NCBI GenBank assembly: GCA_964634875.1 | Contig: CAZWKA010000001.1 | Span: 101,600-165,599, forward strand | Source of the DNA: an uncultured Gammaproteobacteria bacterium | GTDB taxonomy: Bacteria; Patescibacteriota; Patescibacteriia; Magasanikbacterales; GWA2-37-8 | DNA: 64,000 nt | Reading direction: 5' to 3' | Part shown: positions 20,002 to 58,001 of the stretch, in pieces | Position numbering within the stretch: the first letter of the stretch is position 1 | How the letters are laid out: every line of letters begins with the position of its first letter | Notes under the pieces: generated by a model | Told to the model about the DNA's origin: nothing | What the model saw: only the letters and a program-made list of their open reading frames with translations | Database searches by the model: none | Position numbers and translations under genes: made by a program

Positions 20002-20433
20002 ATGCCAACAACAAACCAAATGATCCGCAAGGGACGCACGCCGAAAGTACGGAAGACCAAAACTCCGGCTTTGCAATTTACGGTAGATAACCTCCACCGC
20101 AAAGTAACCTATTTCCGCAAAGGCACCAGCTTCAAACGCGGTGTTTGTACCAAGGTCTATACCACTACTCCTAAAAAACCTAACTCAGCGCTGCGCAAAG
20201 TCGCGAAAGTCCGCCTGAGTAACGGCGTTGAAGTTATCGCCTATATTCCGGGCGAAGGCCACAACCTCCAGGAACACTCCATCGTGCTTATCCGTGGTGG
20301 CCGTGTCAAAGATTTGCCAGGTGTCCGCTACCATATCGTACGCGGTATTTATGATACTCAAGGAGTAGCGAGCCGTCGTCGTGGCCGCAGTCTGTATGGC
20401 AACAAACGTCCGAAAGCAGCTAAGAAGGCGTAA
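20002..20433 (+). CDS. rpsL: 30S ribosomal protein S12
   Basis: [12 protein letters not shown]...[59 protein letters not shown]. Confidence 0.97.
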
Positions 20434-20434
20434 G

Positions 20435-20512
20435 TAAACAGTAAGCAGTAAACAGTAAATAGAAATACTGGTACTGCATAAACTGTTTACTATTTACTGT
20501 TTACTATTTACT
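20435..20512. repeat. palindromic intergenic repeat, family B copy 1 (GTAAACAGTAAGCAGTAAACAGTAAA / CTGTTTACTATTTACTGTTTACTATTTAC)
   Basis: Inverted arms between rpsL and rpsG. Identical arms recur at 21008-21089. Confidence 0.7.
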
Positions 20513-21007: not shown

Positions 21008-21089
21008 GTAAACAGTAAGCAGTAAACAGTAAAAAGAATTTTTACTGTACGCTGCACCTACTGTTTACTATTTACTGTTTACTATTTAC
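21008..21089. repeat. palindromic intergenic repeat, family B copy 2
   Basis: Same arm sequences as 20435-20512 with a different loop, between rpsG and fusA. Confidence 0.7.
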
Positions 21090-21096
21090 TTACACT

Positions 21097-39398: not shown

Positions 39399-39475
39399 TA
39401 AGCAGAGTAGGCAGAGTAAGTACTAAGTAAAATTTGTACCTACACTGCTTAGAACTTACTCTGCCTATCTTGCTT
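39399..39475. repeat. intergenic palindrome (AAGCAGAGTAGGCAGAGTAAGT ... ACTTACTCTGCCTATCTTGCTT)
   Basis: Roughly 22-bp inverted arms between adk and map. Shares an AGTAAGTA-type core with family B and the (AGTACTT)n array. Confidence 0.55.
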
Positions 39476-39489
39476 CACTAAGCAAAAAT

Positions 39490-40314
39490 ATGTTAATCAA
39501 GAGTAAAAAAGAAATCGCCCTCATCGCTGAAGGCGGAAAATTAATGGGTGAAATCTTGAGCGAGCTCAAAGTGTTGTGTAAGCCAGGCATGTCAACGCAT
39601 ACCATTGATCTTCTGGCTGAGAAAAAAATTCTCGCCGTTGGCGGCAAACCGGCTTTTAAAGGCTACACCACTCACGCCACTGACATTCCGTTTCCGGGAA
39701 CGATTTGTGCTTCGGTGAACACCGATCTTGTTCATGCTATTCCCCGTAAAGATGTCATCCTCAAAGATGGTGATATTTTTACGATTGATATTGGTATGGA
39801 ATACCCAGCGGGAAACAGTAAGCGCGGCCGCGGTTTTTTTACCGATACAGCAATTACTTTTTCAATTGGCGAGATTCCCCCCAAGACCAAAGAATTGCTC
39901 CGGGTTACCAAAGAAGCGCTTGAAGTTGGAATGCGGGCGGCAAAGCCTGGTAACAGTGTTGCGAGTATTGGTAAAGCAGTTGAATCGTATGTAAAAAGCC
40001 AGGGTACGTATGGTGTGGTGCGTGATTTGGTTGGGCATGGTGTTGGTCACGAAGTTCACGAGCAGCCGAATATTCCAAACTATTATGACCCGGGGTTGGA
40101 GTCAATTATCTTGAAGCCGGGTATGGTGATTGCTATCGAACCAATGATCTCGATCAGTAAAGAGCATCGGGTAGTAGCCAAGCCCGATGGTTGGACGATC
40201 GCTATGCGCGACAATGCGCTCTCGGCTCATTTTGAGCACACACTTGTGATTACCGCGAAGGGGAATGAGGTGGTGACGAGACGGCCGGGGGAGAGTAAAG
40301 AGGTACTTTGGTAA
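39490..40314 (+). CDS. map: methionine aminopeptidase type I
   Basis: 274 aa. Pita-bread fold with metal ligands in DIGMEY, VGHGVGHEVHE and IEPMIS. Confidence 0.93.
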   Translation: MLIKSKKEIALIAEGGKLMGEILSELKVLCKPGMSTHTIDLLAEKKILAVGGKPAFKGYTTHATDIPFPGTICASVNTDLVHAIPRKDVILKDGDIFTIDIGMEYPAGNSKRGRGFFTDTAITFSIGEIPPKTKELLRVTKEALEVGMRAAKPGNSVASIGKAVESYVKSQGTYGVVRDLVGHGVGHEVHEQPNIPNYYDPGLESIILKPGMVIAIEPMISISKEHRVVAKPDGWTIAMRDNALSAHFEHTLVITAKGNEVVTRRPGESKEVLW

Positions 40315-40316
40315 AT

Positions 40317-40766
40317 GCCAAAATCCTAATTTCAAATGACAAATAAAATGTCAAAGGCTCAAAATCAAAAGTATGATTTGGAAGAGCGAACCGCACAGTT
40401 TGGGGAAGAAGTAATCCGCTTTCTTCAGAAACTAAATAAAGATATAGTTACGTCTCCTTTAATTAGTCAACTTGTTAGATCGGCTACGAGCATTGGTGCT
40501 AATTATTGTGAGGCGGATTGTGCGGAATCAAGAAAAGATTTTGAATATAAAATAGGAATTTGTAAAAAAGAGTCTAAAGAAACAAAGTATTGGTTTAGAA
40601 TGCTGGCGACAGCTTTGCCTCAAGAAAAAGAAAAATGCCGTGAGCTCTGGAAAGAATGCAATGAATTTAACTTGATATTTTCAGCGATTATCAGAAACTC
40701 TCGTAAAAATAAAAATTAGAGCTTGGGATTTTTGTTTGACATTTGAAATTAGGATTTTGACATTTC
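40317..40766 (+). mobile_element. IVS-like cassette: four-helix-bundle ORF bracketed by ~24-bp inverted repeats (AAAATCCTAATTTCAAATGACAAA / TTTGACATTTGAAATTAGGATTTT)
   Basis: The left repeat (40317-40344) overlaps the ORF start. The right repeat (40731-40766) lies just past the stop. 23 of 24 positions are complementary. A related empty repeat pair is at 54277-54326. Confidence 0.5.
40336..40719 (+). CDS. four-helix-bundle protein (23S rRNA intervening-sequence protein family, TIGR02436-like)
   Basis: 127 aa. QLVRSATSIGANYCEA matches the family signature (xLxRSAxSIxxNIAEG). K/E-rich helical composition. Confidence 0.7.
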   Translation: MTNKMSKAQNQKYDLEERTAQFGEEVIRFLQKLNKDIVTSPLISQLVRSATSIGANYCEADCAESRKDFEYKIGICKKESKETKYWFRMLATALPQEKEKCRELWKECNEFNLIFSAIIRNSRKNKN

Positions 40767-40769
40767 ATT

Positions 40770-41165
40770 ATGAATATTCTCGCCCTCGATTATGGCCGTA
40801 AACGCATTGGTGTTGCCTGGGTAGATACTGGGATCAATGTTGTCTTGCCGCTTGGAGTGATTGAAAACACTGGCGAAGCTGTTTTTACAAAACTTGCGGA
40901 TTTGATAAAAAAAGAAAATGCAGACACGGTGGTTATTGGTTTGCCTACGGGGATGGATGGCAGTGAAAATGAAAACACTAAAAATATTCGAGCTTTTGGT
41001 GAAAAACTAGAAAAGTCAATTAGTACTCCAATCGTTTTTGTTGATGAACGTTTTTCTTCGCGCCAAGCAGATGCCATGGGTCAAGGGGTGAGCCGGGATG
41101 AGAAGTCGGCGATGGTGATTTTGGACAGTTACCTTGAGAGCGTAAGGCGAAAAGCTAAAAATTAA
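40770..41165 (+). CDS. ruvX: Holliday-junction resolvase-like nuclease YqgF/RuvX
   Basis: 131 aa. ILALDYGRKRIGVAW, VVIGLPTGMDGSEN, FVDERFSSRQA. Confidence 0.85.
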   Translation: MNILALDYGRKRIGVAWVDTGINVVLPLGVIENTGEAVFTKLADLIKKENADTVVIGLPTGMDGSENENTKNIRAFGEKLEKSISTPIVFVDERFSSRQADAMGQGVSRDEKSAMVILDSYLESVRRKAKN

Positions 41166-41962: not shown

Positions 41963-42092
41963 GCTGGTTGTGGTAGGTTGAATTTTGTTTTCAGTACGTG
42001 GTGGAAGAAAAAAGTATCTTTTGCCACTGGCCTAAAATCGCGCGGAGGGCGCGAAATAGGGCTAGCGGTCTACAATCAAGAGGAGACCCTTC

Positions 42093-42464
42093 ATGAAGAG
42101 CACCTGGTTACTTCCTTTGCTTTTTGGCTTTGGCTGTAGGGCGGCGCCGCTGCCCATCTCTGATAACCCGGTGGCTGTCAGGGAGACAGTGGCGAGCTGC
42201 GAGTCGCCGCAGCGTACGTGGTCGGACTGCGCTGTGGCCTGTGTCCGCAAGGTGAATCTGGATCACGAGTACGACCCGGCGATCGACCTCTGCCGGCGAC
42301 AGCACCCCGACAACGTCAAGGGTGTGGTGGCTTGTCTCAACGACAAAGTCCCCGACTACACCGCCGCCTTCCGCGCCTGTACCAAGGACGACGGCTGCGA
42401 CAAAATCCGGGAGAACCATCCCGGCTGCTTCGGGCCTGAGGCCGTGAACCTGCCTTCGAGCTAG
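42093..42464 (+). CDS. GC-rich secreted Cys-rich protein (single copy of a ~90-aa 8-Cys module)
   Basis: 123 aa with a signal peptide. Cys spacing SCESPQRTWSDCAVACV ... CRRQ ... ACLND ... ACTKDDGCDKIRENHPGCFGPE is shared with both halves of the next ORF. High GC3. Confidence 0.55.
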   Translation: MKSTWLLPLLFGFGCRAAPLPISDNPVAVRETVASCESPQRTWSDCAVACVRKVNLDHEYDPAIDLCRRQHPDNVKGVVACLNDKVPDYTAAFRACTKDDGCDKIRENHPGCFGPEAVNLPSS

Positions 42465-42642
42465 TCTCGGAACAACTGCAGCTTCCTTTTGACCTGGAGC
42501 CGACACTGTCGGCTCCAGTACTGTTTAAAATTAGCCGCTGACATTTTGGGAATAGTCATTAGTCGATATAGTTTCGTATAATGACTGGTTCTAAGGCGCA
42601 TGTGCTGCGTTGTCGAAGCCAGGGTTTTTATCGGAGGGAATC

Positions 42643-43263
42643 ATGTGGAAATTATACACCGGATTGTTGGTGGTTGCTGCTGGCTGTACCTCGCTGGCAA
42701 ATGTTCAGCGGCTGCGACCAGATACGCCGGTTGAGCCGTGTCACGAGGTGCAAAAACGCTACGGCGATTGCAGTCTGCTGTGTGCACAAAAGGCAGATCC
42801 TACCCAAGCAACCAATGCTGTGCTCGACAGTTGTGGCGAGAAATTCAGTGAGAGCATTGATCGGATGTTGGCTTGTTACGAAGCGGAGGCTCCGGAACAA
42901 GCGGTCGCTTACCGTTCGTGCATGCAAGACAGCGGTTGCACGAACGTCCGAGAAAGTCGGGCCAGCTGTTTTGGAGAAGGTGTGCCAACAGGTATAGCTG
43001 TCCAAGGTGATGGTCGCGATTACGAATCATGCCGAGAGGTTGAGGTGGCGTACAATGCCTGTGCGCTGAGCTGTGCTGAGCGGATTGATCCCGATGGTCC
43101 GACAGCCGATTTAATAAAGCGTTGTGCACGTGAGCTACCACCGGACACCTGTTATCGCGAGGGTAGCCCAAAAGCGCCCCAGTTCATGTGGTGCCTAAAA
43201 GCGAATGGGTGTATGGTGCGCCGCACCTTGCGTCCCGAGTGCTTTGTTCCGACTGGTGAGTAG
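42643..43263 (+). CDS. GC-rich Cys-rich lipoprotein (two tandem copies of the same 8-Cys module)
   Basis: Start at ATG 42643 with SD GGAGGGA. Lipobox AAGCT. Repeat 1 is EPCHEVQKRYGDCSLLCAQ ... CGEKF ... ACYE ... CMQDSGCTNVRESRASCFGEG. Repeat 2 is ESCREVEVAYNACALSCAE ... CARE ... CYRE ... CLKANGCMVRRTLRPECFVP. Confidence 0.55.
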   Translation: MWKLYTGLLVVAAGCTSLANVQRLRPDTPVEPCHEVQKRYGDCSLLCAQKADPTQATNAVLDSCGEKFSESIDRMLACYEAEAPEQAVAYRSCMQDSGCTNVRESRASCFGEGVPTGIAVQGDGRDYESCREVEVAYNACALSCAERIDPDGPTADLIKRCARELPPDTCYREGSPKAPQFMWCLKANGCMVRRTLRPECFVPTGE

Positions 43264-43433
43264 GACAGTTCACGATATCTTCGTCCTAATTAGAGAGCCG
43301 ACAAACGTCGGCTCTCATATTGTTTTTGTATTAAAAAAACCACGTTAACAGCGTGGAAGATGGAAGTGTTGGATTAAGTTCTCCCGCCCCAAGAAAGTGT
43401 TGGGACGGGAGAACTTATGGGTGAAAGGAGCGC

Positions 43434-44420
43434 TTATTCGATGTAGCGGTGGGTATCAAAGCCCTCCGGCAGTTCGATCTCATCCAGGTGGAGGAAGGCA
43501 ACTATCGCGATGCGCAGCGCATCGGGGTGAAGTTGCTTGGGCTGCGGAACCTGGACAACACCGTGGTACAAGGGCTTCAGCCGGCCGCCGGTCAAGAGGA
43601 AGGGTTTGCAGGCGTTGAAGAGAAGGGGGCGGTTCGGCTCTGAACTGATCGGTACCCACTCATACGGCTTGCAGGGGTTGAGCCCGGGCGGATGGGGTGT
43701 CGTCAGAACATGGTCCAGATGTTCGCCGCGGTCGTCATGAAGCGCTTCCAGAGCATGTCGTGGTTGCGCGCCTTGCAGACCGGGCCCGCTTTCGTAGGCC
43801 GCATAGGTGAATGCCGAGCGATCGTTATGTCTGCCACCGATTTCGCCCGTAGTATCTTTTCGACGGCCTGTATAACCGAGAATCCGTATCACATCAAAAT
43901 TGTCTCGACCCTCTCGCCCGACCAAGGGAGTCATCTGCGTGCCCAACAAATCATCAAGCTCGCGCACGATTCCACGTGCATGATCTTGAAACCGTCGGAG
44001 CAATGACTGGCAGCTGAAGAGTAACCGCCGATGTTCTCTGAGGAATTCGGGGTTGAACTGGGTCAGCTTGTCGAACAGGGGAGCGCGGAAGTGGAACGTC
44101 TTTTTGTGATCCTTCTCCCGCTCAGGATTCGTTGGATCCGGTTGGCCAACAGATTCCCAGAACCCAGTATCCCAGTCTGGGGGCTGGCCAGGCTTTGAGA
44201 TCATATTGAATGCCCAAGCTCTCGGTTCCTTGGGGGGATTGTCGATCAAGTCCAGAAAATCCCTGACGATCAACGGAATGAGGTCGTCCGTTCTGAGTTC
44301 AACGCGCGTGATTCGGTCGCGGAGAAGTTCTTGTGCGTGGGCTCGATTCCGTGCAAGGTCCATTGTCATGGGCACACTCCTTCTAACTCGCCAGTATAGC
44401 CGAGCCAAATATTTTTGCAA
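43434..44420 (-). CDS. 2-oxoglutarate/Fe(II)-dependent oxygenase-like protein (IPNS/ACCO-type HxD...H)
   Basis: 328 aa. HNDRSAFTYAAYESGPGLQ resembles the HxD ... GLQV strand. YEWVPISSEPNRPLLFNA ... LYHGVV resembles WxxVxPxPxxxVVNxGD ... HRV. Moderately GC-rich. Confidence 0.45.
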   Translation of the reverse strand: MQKYLARLYWRVRRSVPMTMDLARNRAHAQELLRDRITRVELRTDDLIPLIVRDFLDLIDNPPKEPRAWAFNMISKPGQPPDWDTGFWESVGQPDPTNPEREKDHKKTFHFRAPLFDKLTQFNPEFLREHRRLLFSCQSLLRRFQDHARGIVRELDDLLGTQMTPLVGREGRDNFDVIRILGYTGRRKDTTGEIGGRHNDRSAFTYAAYESGPGLQGAQPRHALEALHDDRGEHLDHVLTTPHPPGLNPCKPYEWVPISSEPNRPLLFNACKPFLLTGGRLKPLYHGVVQVPQPKQLHPDALRIAIVAFLHLDEIELPEGFDTHRYIE

Positions 44421-44574
44421 CTCTATTTTCCATTTATTTTTTATGCAGTGGGTATATAAAAATAAAAACAGCCTTTTGAAAAAGCTGTTTTTAAGGGAGG
44501 CCGACGGTGGTATCAGCAGGAGTCAGCCGTTTGAATGAGCGTTGTTAGGTGTGTGGTTCTTGGTCTCTTGGGTG

Positions 44575-45123
44575 CTACTCGCATCCCCACGACGTGTCGC
44601 CTTGCCACCCGGCGAAGCGGGTGTCGTCCGTGTCGCCCCGCACCTCCTGGGTGGGCGGCTCCTTCGGCTCGTTGCAGGTGAAGCGGCATTCGGCCTCAAT
44701 GTGCACATCCGGCTTCGTGAACATGTGCATGTCGCGCCGCTCACCAGTCTTCTTGTTGACGGCGACGGCGCTCGAAATCATCTGGGGGTGGGTAGTGAGC
44801 TTGTAGGCGGTCGCGCCCTCGCAGAACGGGATCGGATTCGGGTTGCAGAGGGCGTAGAAGGTTCCTGCTGGCGATCGTGAGATCTCGAGGATGTAGACCT
44901 TCTGATCCTTGTTCGGGGCGGGCGGCACATTGCAGGCGAAGCTCTTGCCGCCGTCATTGTTCGCTAGCACCACCTCCGGCTCAGAAGACCCCTCCAGGAA
45001 GGCTGAGTTCGTAGTATCGAGTGGGTGCTCCGTCGCCACGACTGCTTCTCGCTGCAAGACCGGCGCGGCGCATGCGCCCGCCATCAACGCTGACACTGCC
45101 ATCCAATTACGCATGCTGGTCAT
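44575..45123 (-). CDS. GC-rich secreted Cys-containing hypothetical protein
   Basis: 182 aa. Signal peptide MTSMRNWMAVSALMAGACAAPVLQ. Six further Cys. A minus-strand CTATCTTGACA motif lies upstream at about 45188-45201. Confidence 0.5.
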   Translation of the reverse strand: MTSMRNWMAVSALMAGACAAPVLQREAVVATEHPLDTTNSAFLEGSSEPEVVLANNDGGKSFACNVPPAPNKDQKVYILEISRSPAGTFYALCNPNPIPFCEGATAYKLTTHPQMISSAVAVNKKTGERRDMHMFTKPDVHIEAECRFTCNEPKEPPTQEVRGDTDDTRFAGWQGDTSWGCE

Positions 45124-45271
45124 GAACGTACCTCCTTGAGTGCGCTGGGCGGTGTGCCCAGCGCAGGAAGTATACTTAACACATTTTTAGAGAATGTCAA
45201 GATAGTTCACAGATAATTTTCCACTTGCCTTTTTGGCTAAAAAGGGCTACGCTAAGCCAGTGCTATGTTAC

Positions 45272-45308
45272 AAGTACTTAGTACTTAGTACTTAGTACTT
45301 GGTACTTA
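45272..45308. repeat. tandem heptamer array (AGTACTT)x5, each unit containing the palindromic hexamer AGTACT
   Basis: AGTACTTAGTACTTAGTACTTAGTACTTGGTACTTAC, about 25 nt upstream of asnS. Confidence 0.7.
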
Positions 45309-45332
45309 CAACTTACTACTCGTTTTAACCGT

Positions 45333-53324: not shown

Positions 53325-53488
53325 CTGAAAAATGCAAAGCGTAAAGTGAAAAGTGTAAAATACACATGTCGCAAAGCGACTCCTTTATTTTTAACTTTTC
53401 GTTTTTAGTTTTGCGCTTTAATAATAGTCCAATATTGTTTTTCTGTCAACGGTTATGCTATACTATGAATACTTTTATTATCCGTGGT

Positions 53489-54276: not shown

Positions 54277-54326
54277 AAAATCCTAATGTCAAATGTCCAA
54301 TCATTTGGAATTTGACATTAGGATTT
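54277..54326. repeat. solo copy of the cassette inverted-repeat pair (AAAATCCTAATGTCAAATGTCCAA / TTGGAATTTGACATTAGGATTT) with no ORF between the arms
   Basis: The arms are 20 of 24 identical to those bracketing the four-helix-bundle ORF at 40317-40766. Here they are separated by only about 4 nt. Confidence 0.6.
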
Positions 54327-57225: not shown

Positions 57226-57756
57226 CTAGTGGGGCTTGAGGGCAAGGTTCTGGGTGGCCGGCACCCGTCCCTCGCGGCCGTAGAAGTCGGGGCGCTCCTG
57301 GTCGCCGTAGCGGCGGCGCACGGGCATGTCGACGGGGGCGTGGTCACACTCCCGGGCCGGCGGCGTCTTGCGCGGGGTCTGGGGCGGCGGGGTGTCGAAG
57401 ACGACCTTGCCGTTCTCAATGCGGAAGTGGTACTGGGCCTGGCCGTGATAGGCGAAGAAGTGCCGCCCATCCGGGATCATGCGTGCCGTCGCCACACGCT
57501 GCGCCTTGTTGAGCGCGAGCTGGTGGGTGTGGCAGAGGCTGGACTCCTCACACGGCGTGCCATCCGACCAGATGCCGGGGCAGCGCTCGGGCGTCGCCTC
57601 GTCGTTGGCGAGGCGGACGAAGCGCCCGCCATCGTCCATCTTCACTATGTACCAGTGACCCTGGAACCAGAACCGCTTGCCGGCCCGGAAGTTGAGGCTG
57701 CGGGCGTGCCGGAAGGCAAGGTCGATGTCAGGCTGACTGTGGGGCTTGACGAGCAT
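57226..57756 (-). CDS. GC-rich hypothetical protein (no signal peptide)
   Basis: 176 aa with high GC3. Cys/His-containing (CPGIWSDGTPCEESSLCHTHQ). No match to a known motif. Confidence 0.4.
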   Translation of the reverse strand: MLVKPHSQPDIDLAFRHARSLNFRAGKRFWFQGHWYIVKMDDGGRFVRLANDEATPERCPGIWSDGTPCEESSLCHTHQLALNKAQRVATARMIPDGRHFFAYHGQAQYHFRIENGKVVFDTPPPQTPRKTPPARECDHAPVDMPVRRRYGDQERPDFYGREGRVPATQNLALKPH

Positions 57757-57806
57757 GGGAATCCTCCTCAGTGTACGTGGGTGCTGGCCCTGGGGAACCA
57801 GCTTGA

Positions 57807-57861
57807 ATCGGCGTGATTATGACCTAGTATGGACAGGATACTAGGTCATAATCACGCCGAT
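57807..57861. repeat. perfect 24-bp inverted repeat with 7-nt loop at the edge of a GC-rich segment
   Basis: ATCGGCGTGATTATGACCTAGTAT GGACAGG ATACTAGGTCATAATCACGCCGAT. Confidence 0.75.
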
Positions 57862-58001
57862 TGGCAGGCAAACCAAGGAATATTGTTAAAAAGAACAACT
57901 ATGCAGTATAGCCCAAAAACCGGTTTTTGTCAATAAGCGCCCCCCCCCAGAATAAAAAACAGCCCTAGGGAAGGGCTGTTTTAGAAAATGAGTGGGGCAG
58001 G

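Follow-up and report, generated by a model that had tools for sequence, protein, structure and literature searches.

A four-helix-bundle gene bracketed by inverted seven-nucleotide arrays in the map-ruvX spacer of a Patescibacteria genome and its likeness to rRNA intervening sequences

Intervening sequences (IVSs) of rRNA are sporadically distributed insertions of foreign base composition at the tips of rRNA helices (i.e., helices 9, 25, and 45), in which complementary termini close a long stem and the loop may hold an open reading frame (ORF) of the S23p family. The helix-25 region of 23S rRNA is a classical site for such insertions. The nature and origin of rRNA IVSs, as well as the role of their ORF, have been open questions since the early 1990s, with nearly all work having addressed a few rRNA copies. 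The Coxiella burnetii IVS has a 28-bp terminal stem and carries, immediately before the S23p ATG, three tandem copies of the heptamer GACAGAT and one degenerate copy; the number of these copies varies between strains, RNase III cuts at the start of the first heptamer, and the G+C content of the IVS is 36%, as compared to 42.5% for the genome (PMC4990558). ORFs of the 23S_rRNA_IVP type have been reported in 16S and 23S insertions in the Candidate Phyla Radiation (CPR) (PMC11270868), while eighteen genes of this type have been reported inside cas operons (PMC3936711). Here, a cassette comprising a four-helix-bundle gene and flanking inverted repeats is described from the spacer between map and ruvX, outside any rRNA gene, in a 64,000-nt stretch of DNA (positions 101,600 to 165,599 of contig CAZWKA010000001.1; hereafter, the window) from an uncultured bacterium of the GTDB lineage Patescibacteriota.

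Comparison of the map-ruvX region with that of the closest relative found, which comes from the same sample and encodes a Map protein 86% identical to that of the window (L201), revealed the junction TGGTAA-GT-ATGAAT in the relative, that is, a spacer of 2 nt where the window has 454 nt. As such, the cassette is an insertion. An earlier reading of the window made from the nucleotide letters alone (the sequence-only reading) had proposed a mobile cassette and a comparison of orthologous loci, and the absence of the ORF from the relative indeed documents its gain or loss at this site. Two further relatives (L203 and L204), with unrelated ORFs on the minus strand in the map-ruvX spacer, are uninformative as regards the cassette. 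In the window, the spacer is wholly filled by an inverted repeat and the ORF that this repeat encloses. The sequence-only reading had correctly recognized the repeat, yet had assigned it a length of 24 bp, with 23 of 24 positions complementary; the arms are actually 36 nt long, are complementary at 33/36 positions (92%), and lie 381 nt apart, constituting the top-listed inverted pair of the window. The left arm begins within the map stop codon, and both candidate start codons of the ORF (at 40336 and 40348) fall inside this arm, in agreement with the overlap noted previously. Repeat units specify the first 12 residues of the encoded protein, for which disorder is predicted. The G+C content of the cassette (~33%) differs from that of the window (48%). 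When up to three mismatches were allowed, exactly four copies of the 18-mer core of the arms were found in the window, as opposed to the 0.08 expected, and the two arms of the map-ruvX cassette align in register with those of a second repeat pair, situated between parA and parB.

The 127-aa product of the enclosed gene matches the TIGR02436 (E 3.5e-21; 75.4 bits, cut-off 24) and PF05635 (E 1.1e-14; 55 bits, cut-off 33.8) profiles and, judged by these scores, is a bona fide member of the TIGR02436/PF05635 family, as had been surmised from its signature residues. Indeed, R48, S52, N56, and E59 of the motif GxxRxxxSxxxNxxE (PMC3936711) are all present (LVRSATSIGANYCEA), with the leading G being replaced by Q in this subfamily. 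An AlphaFold model of the protein, obtained with 35 homologues (pLDDT 90.3), comprises four helices and resembles Protein Data Bank entries 2RLD (TM 0.73-0.85), also the closest solved relative by sequence (E 1.8e-13), and 2GSC (TM 0.66-0.83), with similarity to bAvd (4DWL; TM ~0.6-0.7) being weaker. The ORF family is under purifying selection, with dN/dS values of 0.07-0.13. In the alignment of the subfamily, NYCEADCAE replaces the usual NIAEG, and C58, C62, and C76 of the window protein are invariant or near-invariant; these three cysteines might serve in metal binding or redox sensing.

Between parA and parB, the arms of the second repeat pair nearly abut and enclose no ORF, as reported in the sequence-only reading, and the predicted RNA fold of this hairpin (-27.6 kcal/mol, z -7.7) is a stable one. 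That reading had, however, taken positions 54277-54326 to be the empty cognate site of the cassette, an interpretation that did not survive comparison with relatives. There, the spacer between parA and parB measures 1 nt or 10 nt at truly empty junctions and 41 nt, containing the right arm only, in a 92% relative (L205). Because the empty junctions hold 1 or 10 nt, the hairpin is, by this comparison, an ORF-less form of the element, either a copy or a remnant, and not a vacant target.

Close homologues of the four-helix-bundle protein (60-68% identity) are encoded at 80 loci taken from metagenomes, with 74 of the genes being testable for flanking repeats. These loci are among the matches listed of pattern-based scans, include some near-duplicates, come predominantly from groundwater CPR, and were treated with simple ORF calls. 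Nearly all of the 74 genes are bracketed by a forward array on the left and an inverted array on the right, with bracket scores mostly of 14-33; the 185 control ORFs of similar size from the same loci have a median score of 8, with the 95th percentile at 12.9. The arms, described as 24-bp repeats in the sequence-only reading, do not represent a private 24-mer but are arrays of ~7-nt units with the core C[T/A/C]AAT. About four such cores occur per arm (4.1, as opposed to 0.17 on the wrong strand), successive cores are spaced 7 nt apart in 141/226 cases, and array autocorrelation peaks at a lag of 7 (0.45-0.48 versus ~0.27). The array extends into the coding region, where the common N-terminus MSN(K/D) corresponds to ATGTCAAAT.

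High-scoring control ORFs themselves proved to lie in additional cassettes: they belong to GxxExxY (TIGR04256) or to two other TIGR02436 subfamilies, with inverted arrays of a different repeat unit in each case. The array design based on ~7-nt units is common to thousands of loci, and GxxExxY, encoding a PD-(D/E)XK-like protein, is a second cargo type of the same kind of element. GxxExxY cassettes were noted in L150 (3511-3954), L146 (1809-2243), and L136 (1868-2299), as well as in L135 and L195, with inverted arrays of units such as ACGAATT and GCGAATA and on contigs shared with four-helix-bundle cassettes. The same design is also seen around plasmid genes annotated as 'four helix bundle' or 'S23 ribosomal' in the cultured cyanobacteria Nostoc sp. 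ATCC 53789, Nostoc punctiforme, and Geminocystis, with the Geminocystis plasmid copy lying between parA and parB. In a syntenic operon shared by Nostoc sp. ATCC 53789 plasmid pNsp_c (L211) and N. punctiforme plasmid pNPUN02 (L214), the four-helix-bundle gene is found after a 288-nt gene in the former and before this gene in the latter; the repeat units also differ (GGGAAAA-type and GGAGTCA), and the two copies look like independent insertions in neighboring spacers.

When species-representative genomes were scanned for the 18-mer core, the matches listed included 71 isolated chance matches, 20 ORF-less hairpins, 31 arrays without a close inverted partner, and one adjoining a four-helix-bundle ORF. 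Several other observations on the distribution of the repeats were made. In the genome of Candidatus Falkowbacteria LH_S3 (L074, L004, L044, L058, L070, L091, L104, and others), many contigs bear long tandem arrays of the same motif, e.g., AAATCCTAATGTCAAATG at an 18-nt period, often at contig ends or by runs of N, with other 7-nt arrays adjoining. The C[T/A]AAT repeat type was also encountered in assemblies labeled as being other than CPR, namely, Pirellulales (L094, with a four-helix-bundle gene) and Deltaproteobacteria/Desulfobacterales (L006, L113, L119, and L026), reflecting either wide horizontal spread or binning errors. Finally, L136/L139, L141, L163, L171, L181, and L197/L200 contain a complete, nested hairpin with no ORF of its own, located downstream of the four-helix-bundle stop codon in the stretch that separates the ORF from the right arm. 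These nested hairpins retain the AATAAAAT(G)...CATTTTATT center, a feature suggestive of either insertion into elements already in place or duplication inside them.

In two of the sampled loci (L125 and L128), the cassettes are 90% identical in nucleotide sequence, yet the flanks are unrelated, again pointing to mobility. More generally, the 146 proteins encoded next to the sampled cassettes fall into 114 clusters. Both neighbors are transcribed from the same strand as the cassette gene at 45 loci and both from the opposite strand at one, with the median gaps between the cassette gene and its neighbors (43 and 70 nt) being essentially the lengths of the arms. The arms and the ORF are one heritable unit, as reflected in the correlated usage of cores in the left and right arms (rho 0.50-0.58) and in the relation between protein identity and arm composition (Mantel r -0.36, p 0.001). 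As for dispersed copies, two of the window's repeat type are found in 64 kb, and many ORF-less ones exist in other genomes; no transposase was identified.

The window's repeat type also occurs within rRNA. In a Patescibacteria metagenome-assembled genome (L103), an ORF-less hairpin of this type (AATTTCTAATTTCTAATTTCTAATCAAATCCTAATTTCAAATG...), with C[T/A]AAT repeats that include the 18-mer AAATCCTAATTTCAAATG, forms an insertion of ~170 nt in 23S rRNA, located in the terminal loop of a hairpin at Rfam model positions 573-600, in the helix-25 region. Here, as in the ORF-less IVSs found at helix 25 in Salmonella, Helicobacter, and Proteus, an extended stem-loop replaces the helix tip. Such IVSs differ from the map-ruvX cassette in containing no ORF and in lying within rRNA, their counterpart in the window being the parA-parB hairpin. 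No rRNA motifs were found in the 80 homologous loci; among rRNA copies, these arms were encountered solely in the ORF-less one of L103, and in none with an ORF.

The parallel to 23S rRNA IVSs drawn in the sequence-only reading extends further. The cassette shares with the ORF-bearing IVSs of C. burnetii (helix 45) and Leptospira a protein of the same family, terminal inverted repeats giving a stem of ~28-36 bp around the ORF, tandem 7-nt repeats directly upstream of the start codon, a G+C content below that of the host, a sporadic distribution (the cassette being absent from the 86% relative), and the existence of both ORF-less and ORF-bearing forms (PMC4990558). By contrast, the cassette lies between two operon genes and not in an rRNA helix. 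The Coxiella ORF is, moreover, reported to be decaying and untranslated, whereas the window ORF family is under strong purifying selection, and RNase III excision has been shown for rRNA IVSs, whereas for the window cassette a stem is predicted. Apart from its location, therefore, the cassette displays all the architectural features of an ORF-bearing IVS, consistent with the earlier proposal that a gene of the IVS family resides here in a stem-loop cassette and not within rRNA.

Likenesses to other described systems are more limited. The Correia (nemis) elements of Neisseria and the enterobacterial repetitive intergenic consensus (ERIC) sequences are short spacer insertions with inverted ends that are co-transcribed with flanking genes and whose hairpins are RNase III substrates. 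The cassette resembles these palindromes, which are akin to miniature inverted-repeat transposable elements (MITEs), in its inverted ends and in its position in a spacer. Correia and ERIC elements, however, are not known to contain an ORF or to be composed of 7-nt arrays, and they generate defined target duplications, whereas the cassette carries a selected ORF and 7-nt arrays. Tandem heptanucleotide arrays (TAACTGA) found in Beggiatoaceae, cyanobacteria, and Bacteroidetes immediately precede start codons, contain stops in all frames, and have been proposed to play a translational role (PMC4679880). The window arrays share their 7-nt period and proximity to start codons with these and with the short tandemly repeated repetitive (STRR) sequences of cyanobacteria, in which four-helix-bundle genes are flanked by such arrays; still, TAACTGA and STRR arrays are described as direct and with no link to four-helix-bundle genes, whereas those of the window are inverted pairs around a specific cargo gene. 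In the searchable literature, which covers subscription journals thinly, such that an earlier description is possible, no account of this architecture outside rRNA was found, and 7-nt arrays were tied to four-helix-bundle or GxxExxY genes only locally, in the Coxiella IVS.

The window contains additional hairpins (Table 1). Two copies of a (GTAAACA)n hairpin flank rpsG, for which reason this gene itself obtains a score of 26 for bracketing by inverted repeats. The stem-loop in the adk-map spacer is absent from L201, where this spacer measures 24 nt, while at the site between the tRNA gene and parA, the 92% relative L205 presents a different hairpin of 7-nt units. The turnover of the hairpins at these two sites is fast. 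The predicted folds of the ORF-less hairpins have z values of -5 to -7.7.

Table 1. Coordinates of the map-ruvX cassette, its host genes, and other hairpins in the window.
Feature	Position	Strand	Remarks
Inserted cassette	40315..40768	+	454 nt, ~33% G+C; homology to relative L201 stops exactly at 40314/40769
Left arm	40313..40348	+	Units AAATGCC, AAAATCC, TAATTTC, AAATGAC, AAATAAA, then ATG; overlaps map stop codon and both candidate ATGs
Four-helix-bundle gene (TIGR02436/PF05635)	40336..40719	+	127 aa; alternative start 40348
Right arm	40730..40765	+	Inverted copy of left arm; ends 4 nt from ruvX ATG
map (methionine aminopeptidase), upstream host gene	39490..40314	+	Peptidase_M24 annotation on window-identical 4.9-kb Logan contig L001; homologues
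ruvX, downstream host gene, then recO	40770..41165	+	Pfam RuvX, E 3.9e-32
ORF-less hairpin of map-ruvX repeat type, parA-parB spacer	54278..54326	+	Arms 54278-54301 and 54303-54326; 88% complementary, 1 nt apart
Hairpin of ~7-nt units (GTAAACA)n, rpsL-rpsG spacer	20433..20512	+	Other sequence type, same element class, no ORF
Second (GTAAACA)n hairpin copy, rpsG-fusA spacer	21008..21090	+	
Stem-loop, adk-map spacer	39400..39475	+	No clear 7-nt period (no call by Tandem Repeats Finder)
Hairpin with arms of 7-nt units, between tRNA gene and parA	53326..53412	+	

Three other regions of the window deserve mention. At 45273-45320, (AGTACTT) x 6.9 forms a direct array that lacks an inverted partner, lies just upstream of a class II aminoacyl-tRNA synthetase gene (45333) and resembles the TAACTGA arrays found upstream of start codons in Beggiatoaceae. 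A perfect 25-nt palindrome at 57806-57862 (AATCGGCGTGATTATGACCTAGTAT, a 7-nt gap, and the complement) is not made up of 7-nt units and overlaps the end of the ORF at 57229-57816, for which no Pfam match was obtained. Lastly, ~3.3 kb between recO and the tRNA synthetase gene (~42000-45330) contain four ORFs with no Pfam match; the stretch at 42100-42500 has a G+C content of 61-65% and encodes a Cys-rich protein with a signal-like N-terminus. In L203 and L204, recO and the synthetase gene are directly adjacent, and the region is probably a separate insertion.

In the minimum-free-energy fold predicted for the cassette RNA (-124.9 kcal/mol, z -4.4), the cassette is closed by pairing between its arms. 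At -64 kcal/mol, the arm duplex is the strongest of 72 cassettes considered, which fits a recent arrival of the window copy. On balance, we lean, if only slightly, toward the cassette being a selfish element of the IVS type that resides in an mRNA spacer instead of in an rRNA helix. The unit comprises the left array of ~7-nt repeats, the four-helix-bundle gene, and the inverted array, with the insertion lying exactly between the stop codon of map and the start codon of ruvX. Since no convincing promoter or terminator of its own was detected, with consensus matches being at chance level, and since the cassette is oriented in the direction of the host operon, transcription most likely occurs by read-through from upstream genes. 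In the transcript, the arrays would pair to form a stem of ~36 bp that loops out the cassette and again juxtaposes the map stop and the ruvX start, 2 nt apart in the empty allele. By analogy to rRNA IVSs, this stem may be an RNase III substrate, the cleavage of which would free the four-helix-bundle RNA and separate the flanking cistrons, much as 23S rRNA is fragmented unharmed. Such processing would explain why IVS-type cassettes are tolerated at the tips of rRNA helices and in the spacers of operons. The four-helix-bundle protein presumably acts on behalf of the element and, like its relative Avd, probably binds nucleic acid. ORF-less hairpins, such as that between parA and parB, would represent the much commoner cargo-free form or remnants. 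Spread would take place at the DNA level; arrays of the same type may recombine with one another, in which case ORF-less hairpins would provide landing pads.

Several observations weigh against the IVS-type reading. Many cassettes have arms that are just 72-80% complementary, and non-cognate arm pairs reach -27.2 kcal/mol, as compared to -33.8 kcal/mol for cognate pairs (p 2e-5) and -17.1 kcal/mol for shuffled ones, such that pairing potential stems mostly from the shared repeat motif. No excess of G-U pairs over A-C mismatches was seen on the sense strand (duplex energies of -33.8 for sense and -34.9 for antisense) and, therefore, selection for an RNA stem specifically is not demonstrated; a role for the arrays at the DNA level or in protein binding fits equally well. 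Translation should be impeded by the location of the start codon within the stem, but selection on the protein is evident. In the Pseudanabaena galeata plasmid pPg_01 (L213), where the four-helix-bundle gene lies between cas6 and cas4, the arrays are direct and not inverted, corresponding to (AGCTAAA) x ~16 upstream and (AAAGCCA) x ~10 downstream. Moreover, neither a mobilizing enzyme nor a target-site duplication was found, although the latter result comes from a weak test, involving a single junction with flanks of 76-80% identity, where comparison of the empty (TAA-GT-ATG) and filled (TAA-[ATGCC...TTCATT]-ATG) alleles revealed no convincing duplication.

An alternative is a DNA transposon or MITE-like element, which we regard as possible but clearly less probable than the IVS-type reading. 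In this case, the arrays would be terminal inverted repeats or hairpin ends recognized on DNA by a trans-acting enzyme, with the GxxExxY PD-(D/E)XK nuclease of the sister cassettes or the four-helix-bundle protein being candidates for this role, the RNA stem would be a by-product, and the ORF-less hairpins would be non-autonomous copies. Presence or absence at orthologous sites, the occurrence of nearly identical cassettes between unrelated flanks, the joint inheritance of arms and ORF, the nested hairpins downstream of several cassettes, wobble pairing with no sense-strand bias, and variable complementarity, as expected of ends decaying after insertion, all favor this explanation, as does an excess of ORF-less hairpins over ORF-bearing copies of ~20:1 in a biased sample of the matches listed. 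At the same time, the single well-defined junction shows no target-site duplication, no transposase or integrase is encoded in or beside the cassette, and the 45:1 co-orientation demands an extra assumption, i.e., selection on transcription. The existence of copies at the tips of rRNA helices, together with the RNase III processing published for IVS stems, furthermore, points to tolerance at the RNA level as being essential. A DNA transposon would complement an IVS-type element more than exclude it.

It is rather unlikely that the cassette is a domesticated regulatory module, with hairpins of 7-nt units being the intercistronic punctuation of this lineage, acting in RNA processing, stability, or translational coupling, and the four-helix-bundle protein being a host RNA-binding regulator encoded by chance inside one such hairpin. 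The presence of 7-nt-unit hairpins of several types and of other long stem-loops in the rpsL-rpsG-fusA, adk-map, and tRNA-parA spacers, the strong purifying selection on the protein, and the translational role proposed for 7-nt arrays beside start codons in other phyla (PMC4679880) would agree with such a role. Still, the hairpins and the cassette are dispensable, given their absence from the same junctions in close relatives, different hairpins occupy the same site in relatives, the G+C content of the cassette is foreign to the genome, the insertion sites are highly diverse, and the 64-kb window holds but one four-helix-bundle gene among many hairpins of other repeat types. The sequence-only reading had also raised the possibility of ordinary terminators. 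Although these are A+T-rich intergenic stem-loops and motifs like them are found at numerous unrelated sites, it is highly improbable that they are intrinsic terminators or that an inverted repeat arose by chance around a small ORF with no relation to it. No terminator-like site, that is, a short G+C-rich hairpin followed by a run of T, was found at either arm or at 54278-54326, the cassette arms are far apart, and the sites lie inside essential operons. This explanation was rejected, being contradicted by these missing terminator features, by the count of the 18-mer core, and by the recurrence of the architecture at ~74 homologues and not at control ORFs. Equally remote is the possibility of an Avd accessory gene left behind by a diversity-generating retroelement. 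Avd is likewise a small four-helix-bundle protein with a nucleic-acid-associated role, and other subfamilies match the Avd model weakly. Nonetheless, the window protein gave no match to this model (NF033474) at E <= 0.01, its gene has the housekeeping neighbors map and ruvX, no template repeat is found nearby, and no reverse transcriptase adjoins the gene here or in the sampled loci. As such, identity with Avd was also rejected.

The map-ruvX locus and the ~80 related loci make rRNA copies a minority habitat of an element design, namely, inverted 7-nt arrays with or without a four-helix-bundle or GxxExxY gene, that is mostly found in operon spacers. Thousands of natural insertions, including filled, ORF-less, half-arm, and empty alleles, are thereby available for testing how such elements move and how hosts tolerate them. 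The heptanucleotide repeats of cyanobacteria and other phyla are now tied to a specific cargo gene. For annotation, this means that genes for 'four helix bundle proteins' in cas, par, and ribosomal-protein operons are best regarded as hitch-hikers and not as parts of these systems. More speculatively, and with considerable doubt, inverted 7-nt arrays with a four-helix-bundle or GxxExxY gene may constitute one large unrecognized superfamily of mobile elements, spanning CPR, cyanobacteria, Planctomycetes, and Deltaproteobacteria and including the classical rRNA IVSs, in which the cargo recognizes its own repeat type and drives transposase-less insertion into hairpin loops and operon spacers with the help of host RNase III or recombination machinery. 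Were this so, it would explain many of the intergenic 'heptanucleotide repeats' of bacteria.

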